Virus record (IMG/VR): IMGVR_UViG_2579779034_000001
DNA length: 8,848 nucleotides
Strand: one strand, 5' to 3'
Origin: a virus
Taxonomy: Monodnaviria; Loebvirae; Hofneiviricota; Faserviricetes; Tubulavirales; Inoviridae
The position numbers were made by a program, and so were the translations under genes. The notes under the pieces were generated by a model. It had not been told where the DNA came from, ran no database searches, and saw nothing but the letters and a program-made list of their open reading frames with translations. Shown piece by piece: positions 1 to 8,848 of this stretch (its first letter is position 1; every line of letters begins with the position of its first letter).

Positions 1-32
1 ATTGGTGCGCATAATGTGCGACTCGTTATGTT
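1..32 (+). other. dif-like XerC/XerD recombination site at the left junction (hybrid attL-like)
   Basis: Positions 5-15 GGTGCGCATAA match the E. coli dif XerC arm 11/11 (dif recalled as GGTGCGCATAA-TGTATA-TTATGTTAAAT). Central 16-21 TGTGCG matches 3/6. The XerD-arm position 22-32 is degenerate (about 5/11). Confidence 0.7.
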
Positions 33-36
33 GAAA

Positions 37-102: not shown

Positions 103-1206
103 TTATTTTTTGTCTAATATAGCACTGCTTATATTAGAATTCTTAGCTGTAAAAAGCATATCTGCTTCTTGGTATATTTCACCTGAGCCACCACTAAAGT
201 TAAACTCGATGTTTAGGTCATTATAAGTAATGCTTGGAGAGTATTTTCTGCTTATTATAATATAGCCAACTGAATTTGCAGGAACCTCAACCCTTTCTTT
301 CGGTTTTTCCATAAGATATCCATTATCATTAACAAATTCAACATTGTATTTTTTATACACTCTTATTTCTTCATCATCTCTTTTCTTTTCATCTTTATAA
401 TCAAATGTATCAACATGTTCGGAAATATATTGAAAGTTTTTATATATTCTCCATCCGCCTGAAACCTTCAGTACTTCTGATGTTTTGTTAATTATTCTAA
501 ATTTGAACATTATTTGATTTTTTTCTATCTTGGCATCTATTATTTCAATAGGGTATTCATTCGCTCTTAGATTGTAATTTTCAGTTATCAGTCCATTACC
601 TATAGGATTAATCGAAAGCCCAGAATTGTACATATTGTTATAAATCATGTAGTTATATGCTTTCAAGGGGCCCGCGAGAGGGTTGTCTTCTGTTTGGATA
701 CTGATGACCATATAACTGAAAAATGCAGCAAAAATAGCACCACCTAAGATAAAAGAACCTGCACTCGGTGGCACTGAGTCTTTTGAAAGGTATGTTTTCC
801 CGTCAGTATCTTCTGATCTTATGGAAGGCATGGTACTTTTATCAAGAATTCTTGTTCCTTCAATCAAGAGCACCATGGATATTTTTTTATTTGCTAATAT
901 TCTATCTATCTTTACAAAAGAACCTTCGGTAGTTGCATCATGATCACTTGCAATTACAGTACAAGACATACCGTTTGGGACTTTTATTTCTACATTTTTT
1001 TCTTTATCCTTACCTTTATTAAATACTGATGCATTTATTACTATTGCATTGTCAGATATTGAGGTTTTACTTAAGGAGTTCCAGCAGGATAAGTAAAGTT
1101 GTCTTTTCCTAAATATAGATAAAAACTTATTGAGGACTAATGCCACAAAAAAAGAAGTAACTACTTTCAATGTATCAGTAATCAAGTCCGGCATCTTTTT
1201 TCTCAT
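103..1206 (-). CDS. Hypothetical membrane protein, 367 aa, two predicted TM helices; AT-rich phage cargo gene of unknown function
   Basis: A 367-codon ORF in DNA of roughly 32% GC (a sampled 60-nt stretch gave 19 G+C), where stop codons are frequent by chance. Hydrophobic segments at about residues 12-32 and 148-170. No catalytic motif recognised. Weak Shine-Dalgarno. Confidence 0.75.
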   Translation of the reverse strand: MRKKMPDLITDTLKVVTSFFVALVLNKFLSIFRKRQLYLSCWNSLSKTSISDNAIVINASVFNKGKDKEKNVEIKVPNGMSCTVIASDHDATTEGSFVKIDRILANKKISMVLLIEGTRILDKSTMPSIRSEDTDGKTYLSKDSVPPSAGSFILGGAIFAAFFSYMVISIQTEDNPLAGPLKAYNYMIYNNMYNSGLSINPIGNGLITENYNLRANEYPIEIIDAKIEKNQIMFKFRIINKTSEVLKVSGGWRIYKNFQYISEHVDTFDYKDEKKRDDEEIRVYKKYNVEFVNDNGYLMEKPKERVEVPANSVGYIIISRKYSPSITYNDLNIEFNFSGGSGEIYQEADMLFTAKNSNISSAILDKK

Positions 1207-1273
1207 TTTACTTAAAATCCAGTGTTTTAACTGATCAAAGATGGTCAGATAAAATGCAAAAATTTAGTATTTG

Positions 1274-1304
1274 AATATTACCCTAGTTAACCTAGGGTAA
1301 TATT
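1274..1304. promoter_or_regulatory. Perfect 13-bp inverted repeat with 5-bp spacer (operator-like palindrome) upstream of the 367-aa cargo gene
   Basis: Arm 1274-1286 AATATTACCCTAG and arm 1292-1304 CTAGGGTAATATT are exact reverse complements; spacer TTAAC. No adjacent T tract on either strand, so an operator is more likely than a terminator. Confidence 0.5.
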
Positions 1305-1310
1305 ATATCA
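1302..1310 (-). promoter_or_regulatory. Candidate extended -10 promoter element (TGATATAAT) for the 103..1206 gene
   Basis: Minus-strand sequence TGATATAAT at plus 1302-1310 fits TGnTATAAT. Its TGA is the stop codon of the upstream 139-aa gene. The palindrome 1274-1304 covers the predicted +1 region. Confidence 0.35.
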
Positions 1311-1727
1311 ATAATATGAATTTCTTCGGTGCCACCAATAAAGTAGACCGTATCCGACGATAAGAATCCCAAAAAATATCAGAGACATTCCCCAGCCAGT
1401 TCCGTACCACGAAACCATATCATCGAAAACCAACCCACCCGTTTCACGTACTCCGGCAGCTTCCTTAAGAATTGGTTTGAATACCGGAATCAGAAGGGCG
1501 ATCGCCAGTGGGGCACCCCAGCGAACAAGACCTGTTTCCATTTTGATCCCGAAAAAGATCCCCGCACCGACAACAAGCAACCAGACTATCAGGCCAGGCG
1601 CAGTTTCCAGTGCTGTTTGCCATTCAACATCGAAAGTTTTCATTAGCCAGGCAACAACTGCCAGACAGAAAGCAAATACGCCCACGACAACCAGTTCAAC
1701 GCCGCTTGTTTCGTTATTTCTACTCAT
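1308..1727 (-). CDS. Hypothetical small integral membrane protein, 139 aa, about four TM helices
   Basis: ORF with four hydrophobic stretches. Good RBS on the minus strand (AAGGA about 8 nt before the ATG). GC about 52% in a sampled stretch, clearly higher than neighbours. The antisense ORF 1477..1767 is shorter and judged spurious. Confidence 0.65.
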   Translation of the reverse strand: MSRNNETSGVELVVVGVFAFCLAVVAWLMKTFDVEWQTALETAPGLIVWLLVVGAGIFFGIKMETGLVRWGAPLAIALLIPVFKPILKEAAGVRETGGLVFDDMVSWYGTGWGMSLIFFGILIVGYGLLYWWHRRNSYY

Positions 1728-1769
1728 CCTTTTGATCCTTTTTCATTGTTCAAAATTCGCACAATAAAG

Positions 1770-1798
1770 AACGTGCAGTGTTGGTAATACTGCACGTT
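1770..1798 (-). terminator. Hairpin downstream of the 60-aa regulator gene (minus-strand terminator or attenuator)
   Basis: Perfect 10-bp stem 1770-1779 AACGTGCAGT with 1789-1798 ACTGCACGTT and a 9-nt loop. On the minus strand it is followed by CTTTATT and lies 18 nt after the stop at 1816. Confidence 0.45.
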
Positions 1799-1815
1799 TG
1801 TACCATTCGTGGTAC

Positions 1816-1998
1816 TTAATCCTTTTGTTTGGCAGACATGAGATCTTCTGCTGCATCTTTAGAGTAGTTATCAATCAGATAACCTAAAATCTCTGTCCAT
1901 GTAATTGTTTTTCCTAGTTTTACACTGGCATTTATAGCCAGTCGTTCTAGTTTCATTTTTCTTTCTTCCGTCACGTTATAAGTCGTGCGCTTTGCCAT
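1816..1998 (-). CDS. Small putative DNA-binding regulator (60 aa), divergently transcribed from gII
   Basis: 60-aa basic N-terminus (MAKRTTYNVTEERKMKLERLA). Position and orientation mirror the repressor-replication arrangement of integrative filamentous phages such as rstR-rstA in CTXphi. Function is inferred from context only. Confidence 0.5.
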   Translation of the reverse strand: MAKRTTYNVTEERKMKLERLAINASVKLGKTITWTEILGYLIDNYSKDAAEDLMSAKQKD

Positions 1999-3231: not shown

Positions 3232-3549
3232 ATGTCTAATTATGGTCTTTTCGTTAAGGGTAAAATGTTGGGAGCCCGCCAACGTAATAAAGTTAATGGT
3301 CAGGGCTATTATAATGAAATTGGTATTGGCCTTGAAATACCTGATGGTTTTGGTGGTACAAAGCAGGATCAAATTATTATTCGAGTTTCTCAGGCTCTCG
3401 TTAACGCAGGTCTAATGAACCAGGCGAATGCTTTCATTGGGAAATTAGTTCAAATTCCTGTCTATGTCCGTGCGTGGTCAATGGAGGGTAGGGAAGGTGT
3501 AACTTATAATGTTTCTTCCGATGGTGGCATCGCAGAGATCAAAGGTTAA
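3232..3549 (+). CDS. gV: Putative ssDNA-binding protein (pV-like)
   Basis: 105-aa ORF immediately after gII with RBS AGGAAAG. The position is conserved in Ff phages; similarity to M13 pV is weak (an R/K-rich segment followed by GxYxNE). Confidence 0.6.
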   Translation: MSNYGLFVKGKMLGARQRNKVNGQGYYNEIGIGLEIPDGFGGTKQDQIIIRVSQALVNAGLMNQANAFIGKLVQIPVYVRAWSMEGREGVTYNVSSDGGIAEIKG

Positions 3550-3551
3550 AT

Positions 3552-3638
3552 ATGGACGATGTTATTCAAATTTTGATAGCGTCTGGCATCGTTATTTCTT
3601 TTGGCCTCGGCGCGATTACTGCGGGGGTCTTTCGTTAA
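3552..3638 (+). CDS. gVII: Minor coat protein pVII-like (28 aa)
   Basis: MDDVIQILIASGIVISFGLGAITAGVFR resembles the M13 pVII C-terminal part (IQISVVLCFALGIIAGGQR). Stop overlaps the next start (TAATG). Confidence 0.7.
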   Translation: MDDVIQILIASGIVISFGLGAITAGVFR

Positions 3639-3752: not shown

Positions 3753-3995
3753 ATGAAAATTCTGTCTACTGTTAAATATAAAGTTGCTCTGGCTTCAACT
3801 GCGCTTTTTATTTCTGCAAGTTCTTTTGCGGCTGAAGGCGCTACAGGTGGTACTGATTATGCAGGCCAGGCAATGGATGCTTTGTTGACTCAGGCAAATG
3901 ATCTCATTGGTAAAGTATGGCCTGTTGTTGTGGCTGTGGTTGGCGCTGGGCTTGCCATTCGTATTTTCAAAAAATTCTCTTCAAAAGCGGTTTGA
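3753..3995 (+). CDS. gVIII: Major coat protein pVIII precursor (80 aa, signal peptide plus mature coat)
   Basis: Signal peptide ending SFA followed by AEG, an amphipathic and hydrophobic core, and a basic C-terminus KKFSSKAV, closely paralleling M13 pVIII (SFA-AEGDDP ... KLFKKFTSKAS). Confidence 0.95.
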
Positions 3996-4041: not shown

Positions 4042-5358
4042 ATGAAAAGGAAAATATTAATTCTTTCCGCTGTCCTCATTTCTCCTTTTTCACATGCTGA
4101 GTCATGGGAAAGCATTACTAAATCCACTTATCAAAGTTCTGCCTACGCTGAAAGTAAGCAAATAACCAATCAGGATGGCTCTAAGACAACGGTTTACTAT
4201 ATTGATGCTGCTATGCAGGCCTCCGCTTGTCAGGGTGCTAAATCCAGTGCTCAGAGTGTATTTACTCGGGTTAAACCAACTTATGAGGGTATCTGGCCTG
4301 ATTCTGAATTCCGTCTTGTTTTTACTGGTGATTGTACTTACAGCGATTCACCAGGGCAGAAGGATAAATATTGGTCTTTAACGGCTTATATTGTTGGTAA
4401 TATTCAGCGTTCTGTTCCTGATGAAAAACCTACTGACCCGACACCAGAAGAAATTTGTGAAGCGAAGCCGCCAGAAGAAGGTGTATTTAATAATGTTGAT
4501 TCATATGATGGTGGTCGCTATATCTACTATAACGGCTGTGAATATGAGGCTACTGGTGTCATTGTTTGTCAGGGTGATGGTACTGTTTGCGCTGCAACAT
4601 GGAAGCCTACAGGTGCTGTAGCTGACCCCTCTGATAAACCCTCAACCCCCCAAAATGGCGGTGGTGAGTCCGGTGGTGGTGAGTCCGGTGGTGGTGAGTC
4701 CGGTGGTGGTGAGTCCGGTGGTGGTGAGTCCGGTGGTGGTGAGTCTGGCGGTGGTGAGTCTGGCGGCGGTAGTTCTGGCGGTAGTTCTGGCGGTAGTTCT
4801 GGCGGTAGTTCTGGCGGTGGCTCTAGTGGTTCCAGTCTTTCTAAAGGTGATATTCAGTCTGCGATCGAAGGTGCTTCACCCAAAATAGCCAGCGATATTC
4901 ATGATAAATTAACGGAGAAAGACACTTCATCAGATGATAAAAAAAATGCCGATGAACAAACCAGGAATAATATAAATCGTCTTGACGATTCCATTAACAA
5001 TCTTACGCGGGGGGCTGGCCGTTTTGCTGACCCTTCAGGTGGTGATTCTCGTTATGGAAAGGGCGACTCTGAATTAGATGGCGCTTCTACTTTAGCTGAT
5101 TCTGAATTGGGAATTGAAAAGGATTCTCACGGTGCTTTATGGGAAGCATTTTTAAATAAAGGTGCTATGCTGCCTAATTTGCCCAATGGTAACGGCTGCT
5201 CTGATTTTATTATTTTCCCCGGAGAGGTTTATCAGATTGATATTGGTTGCGATAAATTACTGACTATTAAAGATGTTCTTTCATGGGTTTTTTATTGCCT
5301 TACTTTCTGGTATGTCTTTACTTCTTTAACTTCATTGCTTCGCAAAGGGGGTGAGTGA
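4042..5358 (+). CDS. gIII: Minor coat / adsorption protein pIII (438 aa)
   Basis: Signal peptide [19 protein letters not shown]. Cys-rich segment [26 protein letters not shown] resembles M13 N1 (YEGCLWNATGVVVCTGDETQCYGTW). Gly/Ser-rich linker. C-terminus IDIGCDKL...[17 protein letters not shown] resembles M13 (IDCDKINLFRGV...FMYVFSTFANILRNKES). First ATG after the gVIII terminator. Confidence 0.9.
4657..4836 (+). repeat. In-frame tandem repeats encoding the pIII Gly-rich linker (seven 15-bp GGGES units, then 12- and 15-bp GGSS/GGGSS units)
   Basis: Seven 15-bp units GG(C/T)GGTGGTGAGTC(C/T) from 4657 to 4761, then GGCGGCGGTAGTTCT, three GGCGGTAGTTCT units (4777-4812), and a degenerate tail to 4836. 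Confidence 0.9.
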
Positions 5359-5699
5359 TGCCTTTATTATTAGGTATTCCTGCATTGTTGCGTTTTCTTA
5401 TTGGTCTTGTTCCTTTGTTTATTGGCTATGTGGCGAGTTTTTTAGCTCGACTTGCTACCAGAACAGGATTAATCGCCTTTGCATTGGTCGCATTAATTAC
5501 AACAACTGTTACGCTTTTAATGCAGTACCTTGCTGAGGTCATGTATAACGGTTTACCTGCTGATTTCTCCCATTTAATGGCGTCTGTATTGCCTGACCAT
5601 TTTCAGGCGTGTGTTAACGTTATTATGGTTACTCGTATCAGTGTTTTTGTTTTCGATTTAAAACAAAAATTTCTTGATTATGCAAACAGGGTGATTTAA
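5358..5699 (+). CDS. gVI: Minor coat protein pVI (113 aa)
   Basis: [24 protein letters not shown] closely matches the M13 pVI N-terminus (MPVLLGIPLLLRFLGF) and FDLKQK matches FDVKQK. ATG overlaps the gIII stop (TGATG). Strong RBS AAGGGGGTGAG. Confidence 0.92.
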   Translation: MPLLLGIPALLRFLIGLVPLFIGYVASFLARLATRTGLIAFALVALITTTVTLLMQYLAEVMYNGLPADFSHLMASVLPDHFQACVNVIMVTRISVFVFDLKQKFLDYANRVI

Positions 5700-6794
5700 A
5701 TGGCGGTTTATGTAGTAACAGGCAAATTAGGCTCAGGCAAGACACTTGTTAGTGTTTCCAGAATACAGGAAAGACTTGCTAAGGGTTGTCCTGTTGCCAC
5801 TAATCTTGATCTTAAATTGCATAATATGCCTATGGTTGGGCGTTATGCGAAAAAAACGCGCGTTATTCGCATTCCTGACAAGCCTTCATTAAATGATTTA
5901 CTTGCTATTGGTACTGGGAATACATCTTACGATGAATCCCGTAATGGCCTCCTTGTACTTGATGAATGTGGTACTTGGTTTAATTCCCGCTCATGGGGTG
6001 ATAAAGACAGACAACCTGTTATTGACTGGTTTTTACATGCCAGAAAATTAGGCTGGGATATTATATTTTTGATTCAGGATATTTCGATAATGGATAAGCA
6101 AGCTCGTCTGGCGCTTGCTGAGCATGTTGTTTATTGTCGCCGTTCAGATAAATTAAACATTCCTTTTGTTGGCTCCATTATGAATTTGGTTTCAGGGGCG
6201 AGATTTTCTTTACCAAAGGTACACTTTGGCATTGTCAAATATGGTGATAATGTTAATTCAATCACTGTTGATAAATGGATATATACAGGAAAATCTCTTT
6301 ATTCTGCTTACAATACCAAACAAGCGTTCACAGATAATTATCCTCATGGCGCATTTTCGCTTTTGCCACCATTTATCACGCACGGTCAATTTTCTGTTCA
6401 CAGAGGATTTAATTATTATATGCGCCTCACTAAAATTTATTTTCGCAAATCGAACCGTCTTATATTAATGCTTTCTTTTTTGGCGCTGGGGCTTGCGTTT
6501 GGTTTCTGGCTCCAGTCTGGAAAGAATGTTGATGAAATCTCAGCTATTAAATCTGCTTATGCTGAACAGGCGAGGGCGGTAACGCCTGATTCGTCCAGTG
6601 ACTTACCCCGACTTTCTATTAATTCTTTTTCACAACTTGGCTTTGACGTTTCCGTTACGTTTGTTGATGCAAAAGGTATGAAATATCAGTATTTTGATTT
6701 GATTAAAGATGGTTATTCCGTTGATATTAAAGATGCCTGTCGTGTTGTTATTAGAAAAGGCCGTTATTTACAGACTGTTACCTGTCAGGAGTAA
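5700..6794 (+). CDS. gI: Assembly ATPase pI (Zot-like), 364 aa
   Basis: Walker A GKLGSGKT and Walker B LLVLDECG. Long near-identical stretches to M13 pI as recalled (MAVYVVTGKLGSGKTLVSV, RQPVIDWFLHARKLGWDIIFLIQD, LAEHVVYCRR). C-terminal TM segment. Confidence 0.95.
   Translation: MAVYVVTGKLGSGKTLVSVSRIQERLAKGCPVATNLDLKLHNMPMVGRYAKKTRVIRIPDKPSLNDLLAIGTGNTSYDESRNGLLVLDECGTWFNSRSWGDKDRQPVIDWFLHARKLGWDIIFLIQDISIMDKQARLALAEHVVYCRRSDKLNIPFVGSIMNLVSGARFSLPKVHFGIVKYGDNVNSITVDKWIYTGKSLYSAYNTKQAFTDNYPHGAFSLLPPFITHGQFSVHRGFNYYMRLTKIYFRKSNRLILMLSFLALGLAFGFWLQSGKNVDEISAIKSAYAEQARAVTPDSSSDLPRLSINSFSQLGFDVSVTFVDAKGMKYQYFDLIKDGYSVDIKDACRVVIRKGRYLQTVTCQE
6420..6794 (+). CDS. gXI: Putative nested pXI (in-frame internal start of gI)
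   Basis: In-frame ATG at 6420 (Met241 of pI), the same position as the M13 pXI start (MKLTKIYLKK vs MRLTKIYFRK here), followed by the TM segment. Confidence 0.45.
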   Translation: MRLTKIYFRKSNRLILMLSFLALGLAFGFWLQSGKNVDEISAIKSAYAEQARAVTPDSSSDLPRLSINSFSQLGFDVSVTFVDAKGMKYQYFDLIKDGYSVDIKDACRVVIRKGRYLQTVTCQE

Positions 6795-6801
6795 TATTAT
6801 T

Positions 6802-8067
6802 ATGCGCTCTGTTATTGTTGCTTTTTTATTTGCCTGTTCATTCTGCGTTTCTGCTGAAACTGTTAATTTAAATAATTCATCTGTTCGCTCATTTGTTCAG
6901 TGGTATTCTTCAAAAACTGGCAAGCCTGTTATTGTTAATCCTGATATTAAAGGAAACGTAACCGTATTTAATGCTGATGTTAATCCAACAAATATTGATG
7001 ATTTCTTTAAGTCTGTTCTGAATGCTAACGGTTTTGTCATGCTTTCTGGCAATCCTGCGGTAGTCTCTTTGCCGTCTAAATTACCTTCACAGATGGTTTC
7101 GGATTCCGATGATTCTGATAACCAGTCTTATGATACTTTTCCTTCTGAGCCATCTTACCAGCCAGTACCTGTAGCGCTTACGGTCAGAAATTTTAAGCTG
7201 ACAAAAGTTAGATCGTCCGATGTTCAGCAACTGATTAAAATTTATCTTGATTCTAATGGTGGTGGTAATGTCGTGGATTATCCAGGCAATAACTCGCTGA
7301 TTGTTTCTGCGCCTGACGAGCTGCTGCCGGTTCTGTCCGATTTTATCAATTCTGTGGATGTTGCCCGCGATCAGGTTCTCATTCAGTCGCTGATGTTTGA
7401 AACCAGCTTGTCTGATGGCGTTGATTTATCGTTTGCGGCAGGTTCTGCATCCGGTCATAAGGTTGCGGGGGGCTTTAATACTTCTGCACTGGGTAGCGCT
7501 CTTTCTACGGCGGGCGGTTCTTTTGGTATTTTTGATGGTAACGTGTTGGCGCTGTCTCTGCGTGCTGTCCAGAGTAATTCACGCTCTAAGGTGATTTCAA
7601 CGCCGCGTATTCTTACTCAGTCTGGTCAGACTGGTTACATTTCCGTAGGTAAGAATGTGCCGTTTATCACCGGAAAGGTAACGGGCGAATCTGCCGGGGT
7701 AAATAATCCGTTTCAGACTATCGAGCGTCATGATGTTGGTGTTTCTCTCAAGGTAACGCCTGTTGTCATGGGTAACGGGCAACTAGTTCTGACTATCGAC
7801 ACTCGTGCTGATTCAATCAGCAATGATGATCAGGCATCCGATATTATTACTAATCAGCGCCAGATTCAGACGACAGTCCAGATTAAGGATGGTCAGACGT
7901 TGTTATTGGGGGGGCTTATCGATTCATCGTTCAGCAATGCCGAGCGTTCAGTTCCAGTTATAAGTAAAATTCCTCTTATAGGCTGGATTTTCAGTAGCAA
8001 GGCAGACAGCAATGAACAGCGTATTATGTATATTTTGCTTACAGCACATATCATTCGTCCACTTTGA
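6802..8067 (+). CDS. gIV: Secretin pIV (outer-membrane export channel), 421 aa
   Basis: Signal peptide MRSVIVAFLFACSFCVSA. Strong secretin-domain similarity to M13 pIV (for example SVGKNVPFITGKVTGESAGVNNPFQTIER vs SVGQNVPFITGRVTGESANVNNPFQTIER, DGQTLLLGGL, SKIPLIG). RBS AGGAG. The upstream ATG at 6709 would overlap gI and lacks a signal peptide. Confidence 0.95.
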   Translation: MRSVIVAFLFACSFCVSAETVNLNNSSVRSFVQWYSSKTGKPVIVNPDIKGNVTVFNADVNPTNIDDFFKSVLNANGFVMLSGNPAVVSLPSKLPSQMVSDSDDSDNQSYDTFPSEPSYQPVPVALTVRNFKLTKVRSSDVQQLIKIYLDSNGGGNVVDYPGNNSLIVSAPDELLPVLSDFINSVDVARDQVLIQSLMFETSLSDGVDLSFAAGSASGHKVAGGFNTSALGSALSTAGGSFGIFDGNVLALSLRAVQSNSRSKVISTPRILTQSGQTGYISVGKNVPFITGKVTGESAGVNNPFQTIERHDVGVSLKVTPVVMGNGQLVLTIDTRADSISNDDQASDIITNQRQIQTTVQIKDGQTLLLGGLIDSSFSNAERSVPVISKIPLIGWIFSSKADSNEQRIMYILLTAHIIRPL

Positions 8068-8136: not shown

Positions 8137-8445
8137 ATGGATTCTTATGGGATTTTATCTGCTCTGGCAGAACGAACGATTACAGCGGAAGAAGCAAAAA
8201 CAATGACACTTGCAGCCAGAAGTTCTTCGGCTCAGGTAAATGAAGCATCACTTGCTCTGTTACTGATTGATAATACTCTGGATGCGATCAAAGCAGCTGC
8301 CAGTGAAGGGAAAGGATACACTTTACTTCCTTCTTATGAGATTTCTGTAAAAGCCATTGATTTAGCAGAAGAATTTTTAAGGAAACAATGCGGCTATGTT
8401 ATTGATAACCAGAATGGCGTAAGGACGGTCTATTGGTTTATATGA
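8137..8445 (+). CDS. Hypothetical protein, 102 aa (accessory)
   Basis: ORF with an Ala/Leu-rich, probably helical N-terminal part; RBS-like GGGGT upstream; no recognisable motif. Confidence 0.55.
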   Translation: MDSYGILSALAERTITAEEAKTMTLAARSSSAQVNEASLALLLIDNTLDAIKAAASEGKGYTLLPSYEISVKAIDLAEEFLRKQCGYVIDNQNGVRTVYWFI

Positions 8446-8562: not shown

Positions 8563-8796
8563 ATGCAATTTTTCACATCCAGCGATACTGTAATGTTATG
8601 TGCGAAGACCTGCGATCGCTGTGGTCGCCATGCGAAGACGGTGGTAGATGACATTGAGTTCAATGAGTTTCTGTCTGTTAATCACTTAGCTGGATACGGT
8701 TCAATTTTTGGTGACAGTAATCGCTTAAAACTGGATTTATGCCAACATTGCCTGAAAGACGTCCTGGGCCAGTGGATTACGGTCTGTGACCAATGA
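8563..8796 (+). CDS. Hypothetical Cys-rich putative zinc-ribbon protein, 77 aa (accessory)
   Basis: Strong RBS GAGGAG 5 nt upstream of the ATG. Cys pairs CDRC (residues 17-20) and CQHC (60-63) plus C13 and C75, compatible with a Cys4 zinc-binding fold. Function unknown. Confidence 0.62.
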   Translation: MQFFTSSDTVMLCAKTCDRCGRHAKTVVDDIEFNEFLSVNHLAGYGSIFGDSNRLKLDLCQHCLKDVLGQWITVCDQ

Positions 8797-8831: not shown

Positions 8832-8848
8832 ATTGGTGCGCATAATGT
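8832..8848 (+). other. Start of the right-junction dif site (XerC arm), truncated by the window end
   Basis: ATTGGTGCGCATAATGT is identical to 1-17. GGTGCGCATAA-TGT is the beginning of the canonical dif core. Confidence 0.7.

Follow-up and report, generated by a model that had tools for sequence, protein, structure and literature searches.

Domain layout and host recognition of the attachment protein pIII in a UPΦ-type filamentous prophage

Which part of the attachment protein of a filamentous phage meets the host first, and what does it bind, when its domains do not follow the order known from the Ff phages? The question is raised by gene III of an 8848-nt stretch of DNA (IMG/VR record IMGVR_UViG_2579779034_000001), called the window below, which corresponds to a single complete unit of a filamentous (inovirus) prophage. 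This prophage is integrated in tandem at dif and is of the UPΦ type, already described in print; UPΦ-type phages integrate at dif and are related to the Lineavirus members IKe and I2-2. Gene III encodes pIII, a protein of 438 residues that RefSeq labels 'attachment protein'. Its N-terminal half, residues 1-205, was described in a preliminary description, made from the sequence alone, as a domain of about 105 residues placed ahead of an N1-like, TolA-binding domain. The protein has IKe-type architecture, which is a known layout, and it is highly probable that its N-terminal half is the host-recognition part of an IKe-type attachment protein, with the first domain serving as the specificity module.

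The two N-terminal domains of pIII

The order of the domains is read from matches to Pfam families and to solved structures. Pfam family PF21443, 'G3P pilus binding domain', is matched at residues 22-125 with 87 bits (cut-off 27), and a phmmer search of all PDB chains matches 4eo0 over residues 20-128 (E 1.3e-25). When a profile of this pilus-binding domain (PBD) is used against the PDB, 4eo0 is the sole match (E 2.7e-49). The phmmer search also matches 4eo1 over residues 130-195 (E 4e-25) and the N1 domain in the fd/M13 structures 1fgp, 1g3p, 2g3p and 8b3o (E 1e-10 to 1e-13), the Pfam match in this region being PF05357. According to their PDB titles, 4eo0 is the 'pilus binding domain' and 4eo1 the 'TolA binding domain' of phage IKe. 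The four N1 cysteines are paired with those of fd (C139/C7, C166/C36, C176/C46 and C183/C53). The full-length match to 8b3o (E 2e-22) includes the C-terminal domain, where residues 375-435 align with residues 343-403 of f1 pIII in this cryo-EM structure; the fd/M13 G3P structures match solely residues 137-193 and the C-terminal ~60 residues of pIII. To judge by their E-values, the matches of the two N-terminal domains lie well outside what chance would give.

The same assignment is obtained from the fold. An AlphaFold2 (AF2) model of residues 20-205 was unusable with single-sequence input (pLDDT 54) and reached a pLDDT of 92.7 with an alignment of 11 sequences as input. In Foldseek, the latter model superposes on 4eo0 with a TMt of 0.95, a root-mean-square deviation of 1.3 Å and 45% identity, and on 4eo1 with a TMt of 0.90, a deviation of 1.1 Å and 71% identity. 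It also matches 2x9a, the complex of IF1 N1 with TolA (TMt 0.87), and shows 46-48% identity to fd N1 in the structural alignment. Among viral predicted structures, Foldseek gave just two further significant matches, both unnamed. Despite its high pLDDT, the model has a pTM of only 0.56, a combination that fits two well-folded domains modelled without a fixed mutual orientation.

These results bear out both domains of the preliminary description and change some of their limits. The domain of about 105 residues is found at residues 20-125, whereas the N1-like domain, which had been given as residues 150-195, extends over residues 137-193. The Pro/Glu-rich string that had been quoted as the spacer between them is present at residues 126-146, but only about residues 126-136 are spacer, as the second half of the string is the first strand region of N1 and bears the first disulfide cysteine (Cys139). 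In the model, the spacer is without regular secondary structure until a short helix at about residues 135-140, and the pLDDT drops to 81-82 over residues 120-139. Its identity to IKe, I2-2 and Erwinia phage PEar1 is 64-82%; the tail of N1 is poorly conserved, with 18% identity to IKe. No Gly linker lies between the PBD and N1, and the sole Gly-rich linker comes after N1, as had been noted. With regard to the N terminus, RefSeq annotates an identical prophage with the same gene III start, and the alignment with the mature IKe domain in 4eo0 begins at residue 20.

The preliminary description had also noted, for the order of a receptor domain followed by a TolA domain, a likeness to IKe and I2-2 and a difference from Ff. 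Both statements hold. From the N terminus, pIII presents the PBD fold (20-125), a short non-Gly spacer (126-136), an N1 with two disulfides (137-193) and one Gly-rich linker (206-265), which are the features of IKe-type G3P. From end to end it aligns colinearly with its counterparts in IKe, I2-2 and PEar1 (53-54% identity), and both 4eo0 and 4eo1 are matched by sequence and by fold. The identity is unevenly distributed: the PBD, N1 and C-terminal domain are 44%, 77% and 52% identical to those of IKe, and 44-45%, 77-79% and 52-53% identical when IKe and I2-2 are taken together. In Ff, the order is N1, linker, N2, linker; here, the PBD comes first and no homologue of N2 is found. The label 'extra' for the N-terminal domain fails, as pIII has two N-terminal domains and a C-terminal domain, the same count as Ff.

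A distant relative, P0017 (521 residues), has three N-terminal domains in one pIII. In this protein, an IKe-type PBD at residues 23-133 (4eo0, E 2e-11) is followed by N1 at 147-207 and by an Ff-type N2 at about 240-356, which aligns with residues 97-208 of 1g3p. It is in P0017 that the IKe-type domain is truly 'extra'.

Host recognition and the identity of the receptor

The architecture and the folds of pIII are direct results, and the binding partners proposed for it are taken over from the IKe and Ff paradigm. In IKe, p3 binds the retracting pilus via D1 and TolA via D2 (IKe cryo-EM paper, PMC6431161). In the window phage, five copies of pIII would likewise cap the virion tip, and the outermost domain, the PBD, would catch a retractile pilus by its tip; this pilus is most likely of the conjugative kind. 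By retracting, it would then carry the phage tip to the periplasm, where N1 would bind the C-terminal domain (domain III) of TolA. Finally, the C-terminal domain of pIII would enter the inner membrane with TolQRA, and the single-stranded DNA would be released. Because the spacer is short and the model contains no confident packing of the PBD against N1, the TolA site on N1 is probably accessible at all times, as has been reported for IKe, and not locked in the manner of fd. The two IKe domains are reportedly independent of each other (Jakob et al. 2012), with a TolA site that is always exposed and of low affinity. By analogy, and judging from the model, the same domain independence and the same kind of TolA site would be expected in the window pIII.

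The rates of change along the protein agree with the role proposed for the PBD. Of the three domains, the PBD has the highest ratio of nonsynonymous to synonymous substitution rates (dN/dS) in each of the six pairs of proteins for which all of them could be scored; in a seventh pair, the window and IKe, dS is saturated for N1. In close UPΦ and IKe-type pairs, the dN/dS of the PBD is 0.11-0.15, and it rises to 0.36 for IKe/PEar1; that of N1 is 0.02-0.09 across the six pairs. The PBD thus appears to be the fastest-evolving module of pIII, which is consistent with its setting the host range. The proteins of the PEar phages are 84-94% identical to IKe everywhere but in the PBD (53%), a divergence that, at the level of sequence, again marks this domain as a module that may change with the host.

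A separate observation concerns IKe and I2-2 themselves. Between their PBDs, dN is 0.050 and dS 0.029 (dN/dS 1.72, from few substitutions), while N1 and the C-terminal domain have dN/dS values of 0.08-0.18, a hint that the receptor domain has changed adaptively between these two phages.

Three points weigh against the proposed mechanism. First, the PBD is just 44-45% identical to the characterised binders of N and I2 pili, and the receptor class is therefore extrapolated. Second, neither plaques nor integration resulted when infection of hosts carrying IncI plasmids, among them JE-1, the I2-2 host, was attempted (Shapiro and Putonti 2020). Third, the independence of the two domains is argued from a low pTM and from the IKe study of Jakob et al. 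2012. The caution of the preliminary description, that host range is not predictable from the sequence, was thus a fair one in view of the first two points.

The alternative that survives best keeps the IKe-type architecture but gives the PBD a receptor other than the N or I2 conjugative pili, so that entry would be independent of IncN and IncI2 plasmids. The candidates would be another plasmid pilus, or a chromosomal pilus or fimbria common to E. coli, Salmonella, Klebsiella, Citrobacter and Yersinia. This would agree with the contrast between a diverged PBD and a conserved N1, with the failure of UPΦ901 on JE-1 and on three IncI-bearing strains (Shapiro and Putonti 2020), and with the presence of UPΦ in five genera (PMC7307601). 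In addition, the 205-residue N-terminal half is identical in prophages or circular forms from E. coli and Salmonella, and PEar1, in which the PBD is similarly diverged, infects Erwinia amylovora. Nevertheless, the characterised members of the PBD fold all bind conjugative pili, IncI plasmids were present in every UPΦ901 host of the original collection (Shapiro and Putonti 2020), and low titre, immunity or limits of the assay may lie behind the failed infections. On balance, a receptor of this other kind is a quite possible explanation, though not the expected one. The more specific proposal, that the PBD of UPΦ has the IKe fold with a novel specificity, its receptor being not an N or I2 pilus but possibly a chromosomal or widespread retractile pilus, is tentative and somewhat unlikely. 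If true, it would account for two observations: IncI hosts could not be infected, and E. coli and Salmonella share an identical N-terminal half. A literature search found no later paper on the receptor of UPΦ.

It is very improbable that the prophage is a defective remnant in which gene III is no longer selected for infection, a reading suggested by the fact that new laboratory infections could not be established (Shapiro and Putonti 2020). Against it, 52 complete E. coli genomes hold an intact open reading frame (ORF), with identities of at least 99% in most of them. All cysteines are conserved, and between UPΦ alleles dN/dS is 0.03-0.15 in all domains, with no frameshifts and no value near 1. 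Moreover, circular phage-sized replicons exist, and UPΦ lysogens shed DNase-protected phage DNA (PMC7307601).

Next to no credence is left for the idea that the N-terminal ~105 residues are a diverged, F-pilus-specific Ff N2 moved ahead of N1, an idea that draws on the general expectation of an N2 in the pIII of filamentous coliphages and on P0017, which does have an Ff-like N2, but in addition to the IKe-type domain: the best BLASTP match of residues 20-132 to M13 g3p has an E-value of 1.7, HHalign of an eight-member PBD profile against M13 N2 gives a probability of 0.13% (E 0.44), phmmer and hmmsearch find no match of fd N2 to the PBD in the PDB, and Foldseek against fd N2 (9g8e) gives an E-value of 2.1 and TM values of 0.19/0.31, compared with 0.95 for 4eo0. 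The N2 assignment, which the preliminary description had put forward as its own possible refutation, fails because none of BLASTP, HHalign and Foldseek shows a relation; the fold is different and the domains are non-homologous by these methods.

The prophage and its spread

The window carries ten Ff-type core gene families, all in Ff order and on the + strand, as seen in the ORF list and a Pfam scan of the window (Table 1). Its first 17 nt (ATTGGTGCGCATAATGT) recur at its end, at 8832-8848, and the window is consequently one circularly permuted phage unit. In the dif-like site, the bases of the XerC arm are canonical and the XerD arm has mismatches, and 11 nt separate the arms, compared with the 6-nt spacer of dif. 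The canonical 28-bp dif of E. coli was not found in the window when up to 3 mismatches were allowed, and a search with Rfam found no RNA family in it.

Table 1. Features of the window (nucleotide positions; aa, amino-acid residues, numbered as in pIII in the rows on gIII; TRF, Tandem Repeats Finder)
Feature	Position	Strand	Description	Basis
dif-like attachment site	4-36	+	GGTGCGCATAA-TGTGCGACTCG-TTATGTTGAAA	prophage junctions read
Three accessory ORFs	103-1998	-	367, 139 and 60 aa	ORF list
gII	2126/2168-3220	+		ORF list, Pfam
gV	3232-3549	+		ORF list, Pfam
gVII	3552-3638	+		ORF list, Pfam
gVIII	3753-3995	+		ORF list, Pfam
gIII	4042-5358	+	438 aa; 4042-4656 = aa 1-205, stopping right before the Gly-rich linker
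gIII start and signal peptide	4042..4098	+	aa 1-19	aligned with the annotated 19-aa IKe pIII signal peptide
IKe-type PBD	4099..4416	+	aa 20-125; invariant Cys63 and Cys98	PF21443, 4eo0, AF2/Foldseek
Pro/Glu/Asp/Thr spacer between the two N-terminal domains	4417..4449	+	aa 126-136 (11 aa)	sequence
N1-type TolA-binding domain	4450..4620	+	aa 137-193; Cys 139/166/176/183	4eo1, fd/M13 N1, PF05357, Foldseek
Pro/Ser-rich N1 tail	4621..4656	+	aa 194-205, running into the linker	sequence
Single Gly-rich linker	4657..4836	+	aa 206-265; seven GGGES, then GGSS-type units	sequence, TRF
C-terminal domain, membrane and virion anchor	4837..5358	+	aa 266-438, plus stop	colinear with IKe, I2-2 and PEar1
gVI	5358-5699	+		ORF list, Pfam
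gI	5700-6794	+	Zot family	ORF list, Pfam
gIV	6802-8067	+	secretin	ORF list, Pfam
Two accessory ORFs	8137-8445, 8563-8796		3' of gIV	ORF list

Copies of the prophage are known from complete genomes. In E. coli AZ184, the window sequence is present at 99.8% identity in a tandem that adjoins hipBA, with units of 8846 nt arranged head to tail. A circular 'plasmid' of Salmonella enterica (7938 nt) has the same core genes as the window and is evidently a replicative form. The cargo region beside the dif-like site is variable: in other E. coli copies the match is limited to 86% of the window and the genes differ, and the Salmonella circle has a gene for a Doc-family (death-on-curing) toxin in the cargo position. 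All three reverse ORFs of the window belong to PHROG families of unknown function.

Part of this region is also found outside the prophages. Positions 27-97 (~70 nt, comprising the remnant of the XerD arm and a GC-rich hairpin with its tail) have counterparts of ~94% identity in roughly 400 large plasmids, of which the majority are conjugative and the majority come from E. coli. One of these plasmids, the IncF plasmid pL65-2, was examined; in it, the similar segment lies just 3' of a gene of the 'STM4504/CBY_0614 family', and in other UPΦ variants a gene of this family takes the place of the reverse accessory ORFs. This suggests that the segment is a shared mobile cargo cassette or terminator.

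The N-terminal region of pIII is present in 55 of 5426 complete E. coli genomes, with identities of at least 95% in 48, of about 83-85% in six and of about 70% in one, an IKe-like replicon. The PBD family is tiny: an exhaustive HMMER search with residues 20-128 among 1.84 billion cluster representatives gave 12 proteins at E <= 0.001, with only a few distinct full-length lineages among them. A word-indexed homologue search returned close relatives only, mostly fragments, and many of these entries end at or near the Gly repeat, which probably breaks assemblies. In the DNA of the linker, TRF finds a 15-nt unit repeated 6.7 times at 4660-4760 (97% match) and a 12-nt unit repeated 4.5 times at 4765-4818 (100% match). 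The number of GGGES units is seven in the window, eight in AZ184 and three in the Salmonella circular form, and this copy number is the sole difference between these pIII alleles; their first 205 residues are identical in the examined E. coli and Salmonella copies.

IKe-like genes are also found on pCREC572-6, a circular plasmid of 14488 nt from the clinical isolate E. coli strain 572. Its pIII is 98% identical to IKe in N1 and 82% in the PBD. The N-terminal region of pIII matches this plasmid at two places, which may mean that the plasmid is a dimer of the replicative form of an IKe-type phage. A frameshift is annotated in its gII.

Comparison with known filamentous phages

Both the IKe-type layout of G3P and the UPΦ group of phages are already known, and the layout is captured by Pfam and PHROGs, in which phrog_4150 covers the full length of pIII (E 7e-278). 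The value of the present assignment is mainly that of a correct annotation, with little beyond it. For the UPΦ prophages, which are widespread in urinary E. coli, it divides the attachment protein into a receptor module of solved fold (residues 20-125) and a conserved TolA module (residues 137-193). These limits provide a precise construct for finding the receptor, which in turn would define the strains that are able to acquire UPΦ prophages.

The UPΦ viruses, UPΦ901 among them, are integrated at dif, in tandem, in E. coli (Shapiro and Putonti 2020, Virus Evol, PMC7307601). Their core genes are nearest to those of IKe and I2-2, except that genes II and V come from a different lineage; two forward accessory ORFs follow gIV, three reverse ones follow dif, and the g3p alleles vary in the number of GGGES repeats (PMC7307601). 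The window resembles UPΦ901 and the group at large, as judged from the published description rather than from the UMB0901 sequence, in its tandem integration at a dif-like site, its IKe/I2-2-like core with genes II and V of another lineage, the two forward accessory ORFs (h1 and h2) that follow gene IV, its three reverse ones and the variable number of GGGES units. In that paper, g3p is treated without the division into IKe-type pilus-binding and TolA-binding domains that is made here.

IKe (Lineavirus; 4EO0, 4EO1) and I2-2 share with the UPΦ pIII the order and number of domains, the short PDE..PEE spacer and the cysteine pattern. The linker differs, being made of GGGES and GGSS units in the window pIII and of GGDT and GGST units in IKe and I2-2. 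Unlike these two phages, moreover, the window phage integrates at dif and bears accessory genes. The Erwinia phages PEar1, 2, 4 and 6 have the same IKe-type architecture, with 53% overall identity to the window pIII. With the Ff phages (fd, f1 and M13; 1G3P, 2G3P, 8B3O), the protein has in common an N1 with both disulfides, a Gly-rich linker and the C-terminal anchor. However, where Ff pIII continues from N1 and its linker to N2, which binds the F pilus, and to a second Gly-rich linker, the window pIII has neither an N2 after N1 nor a second such linker, and a receptor domain of a different fold comes first.
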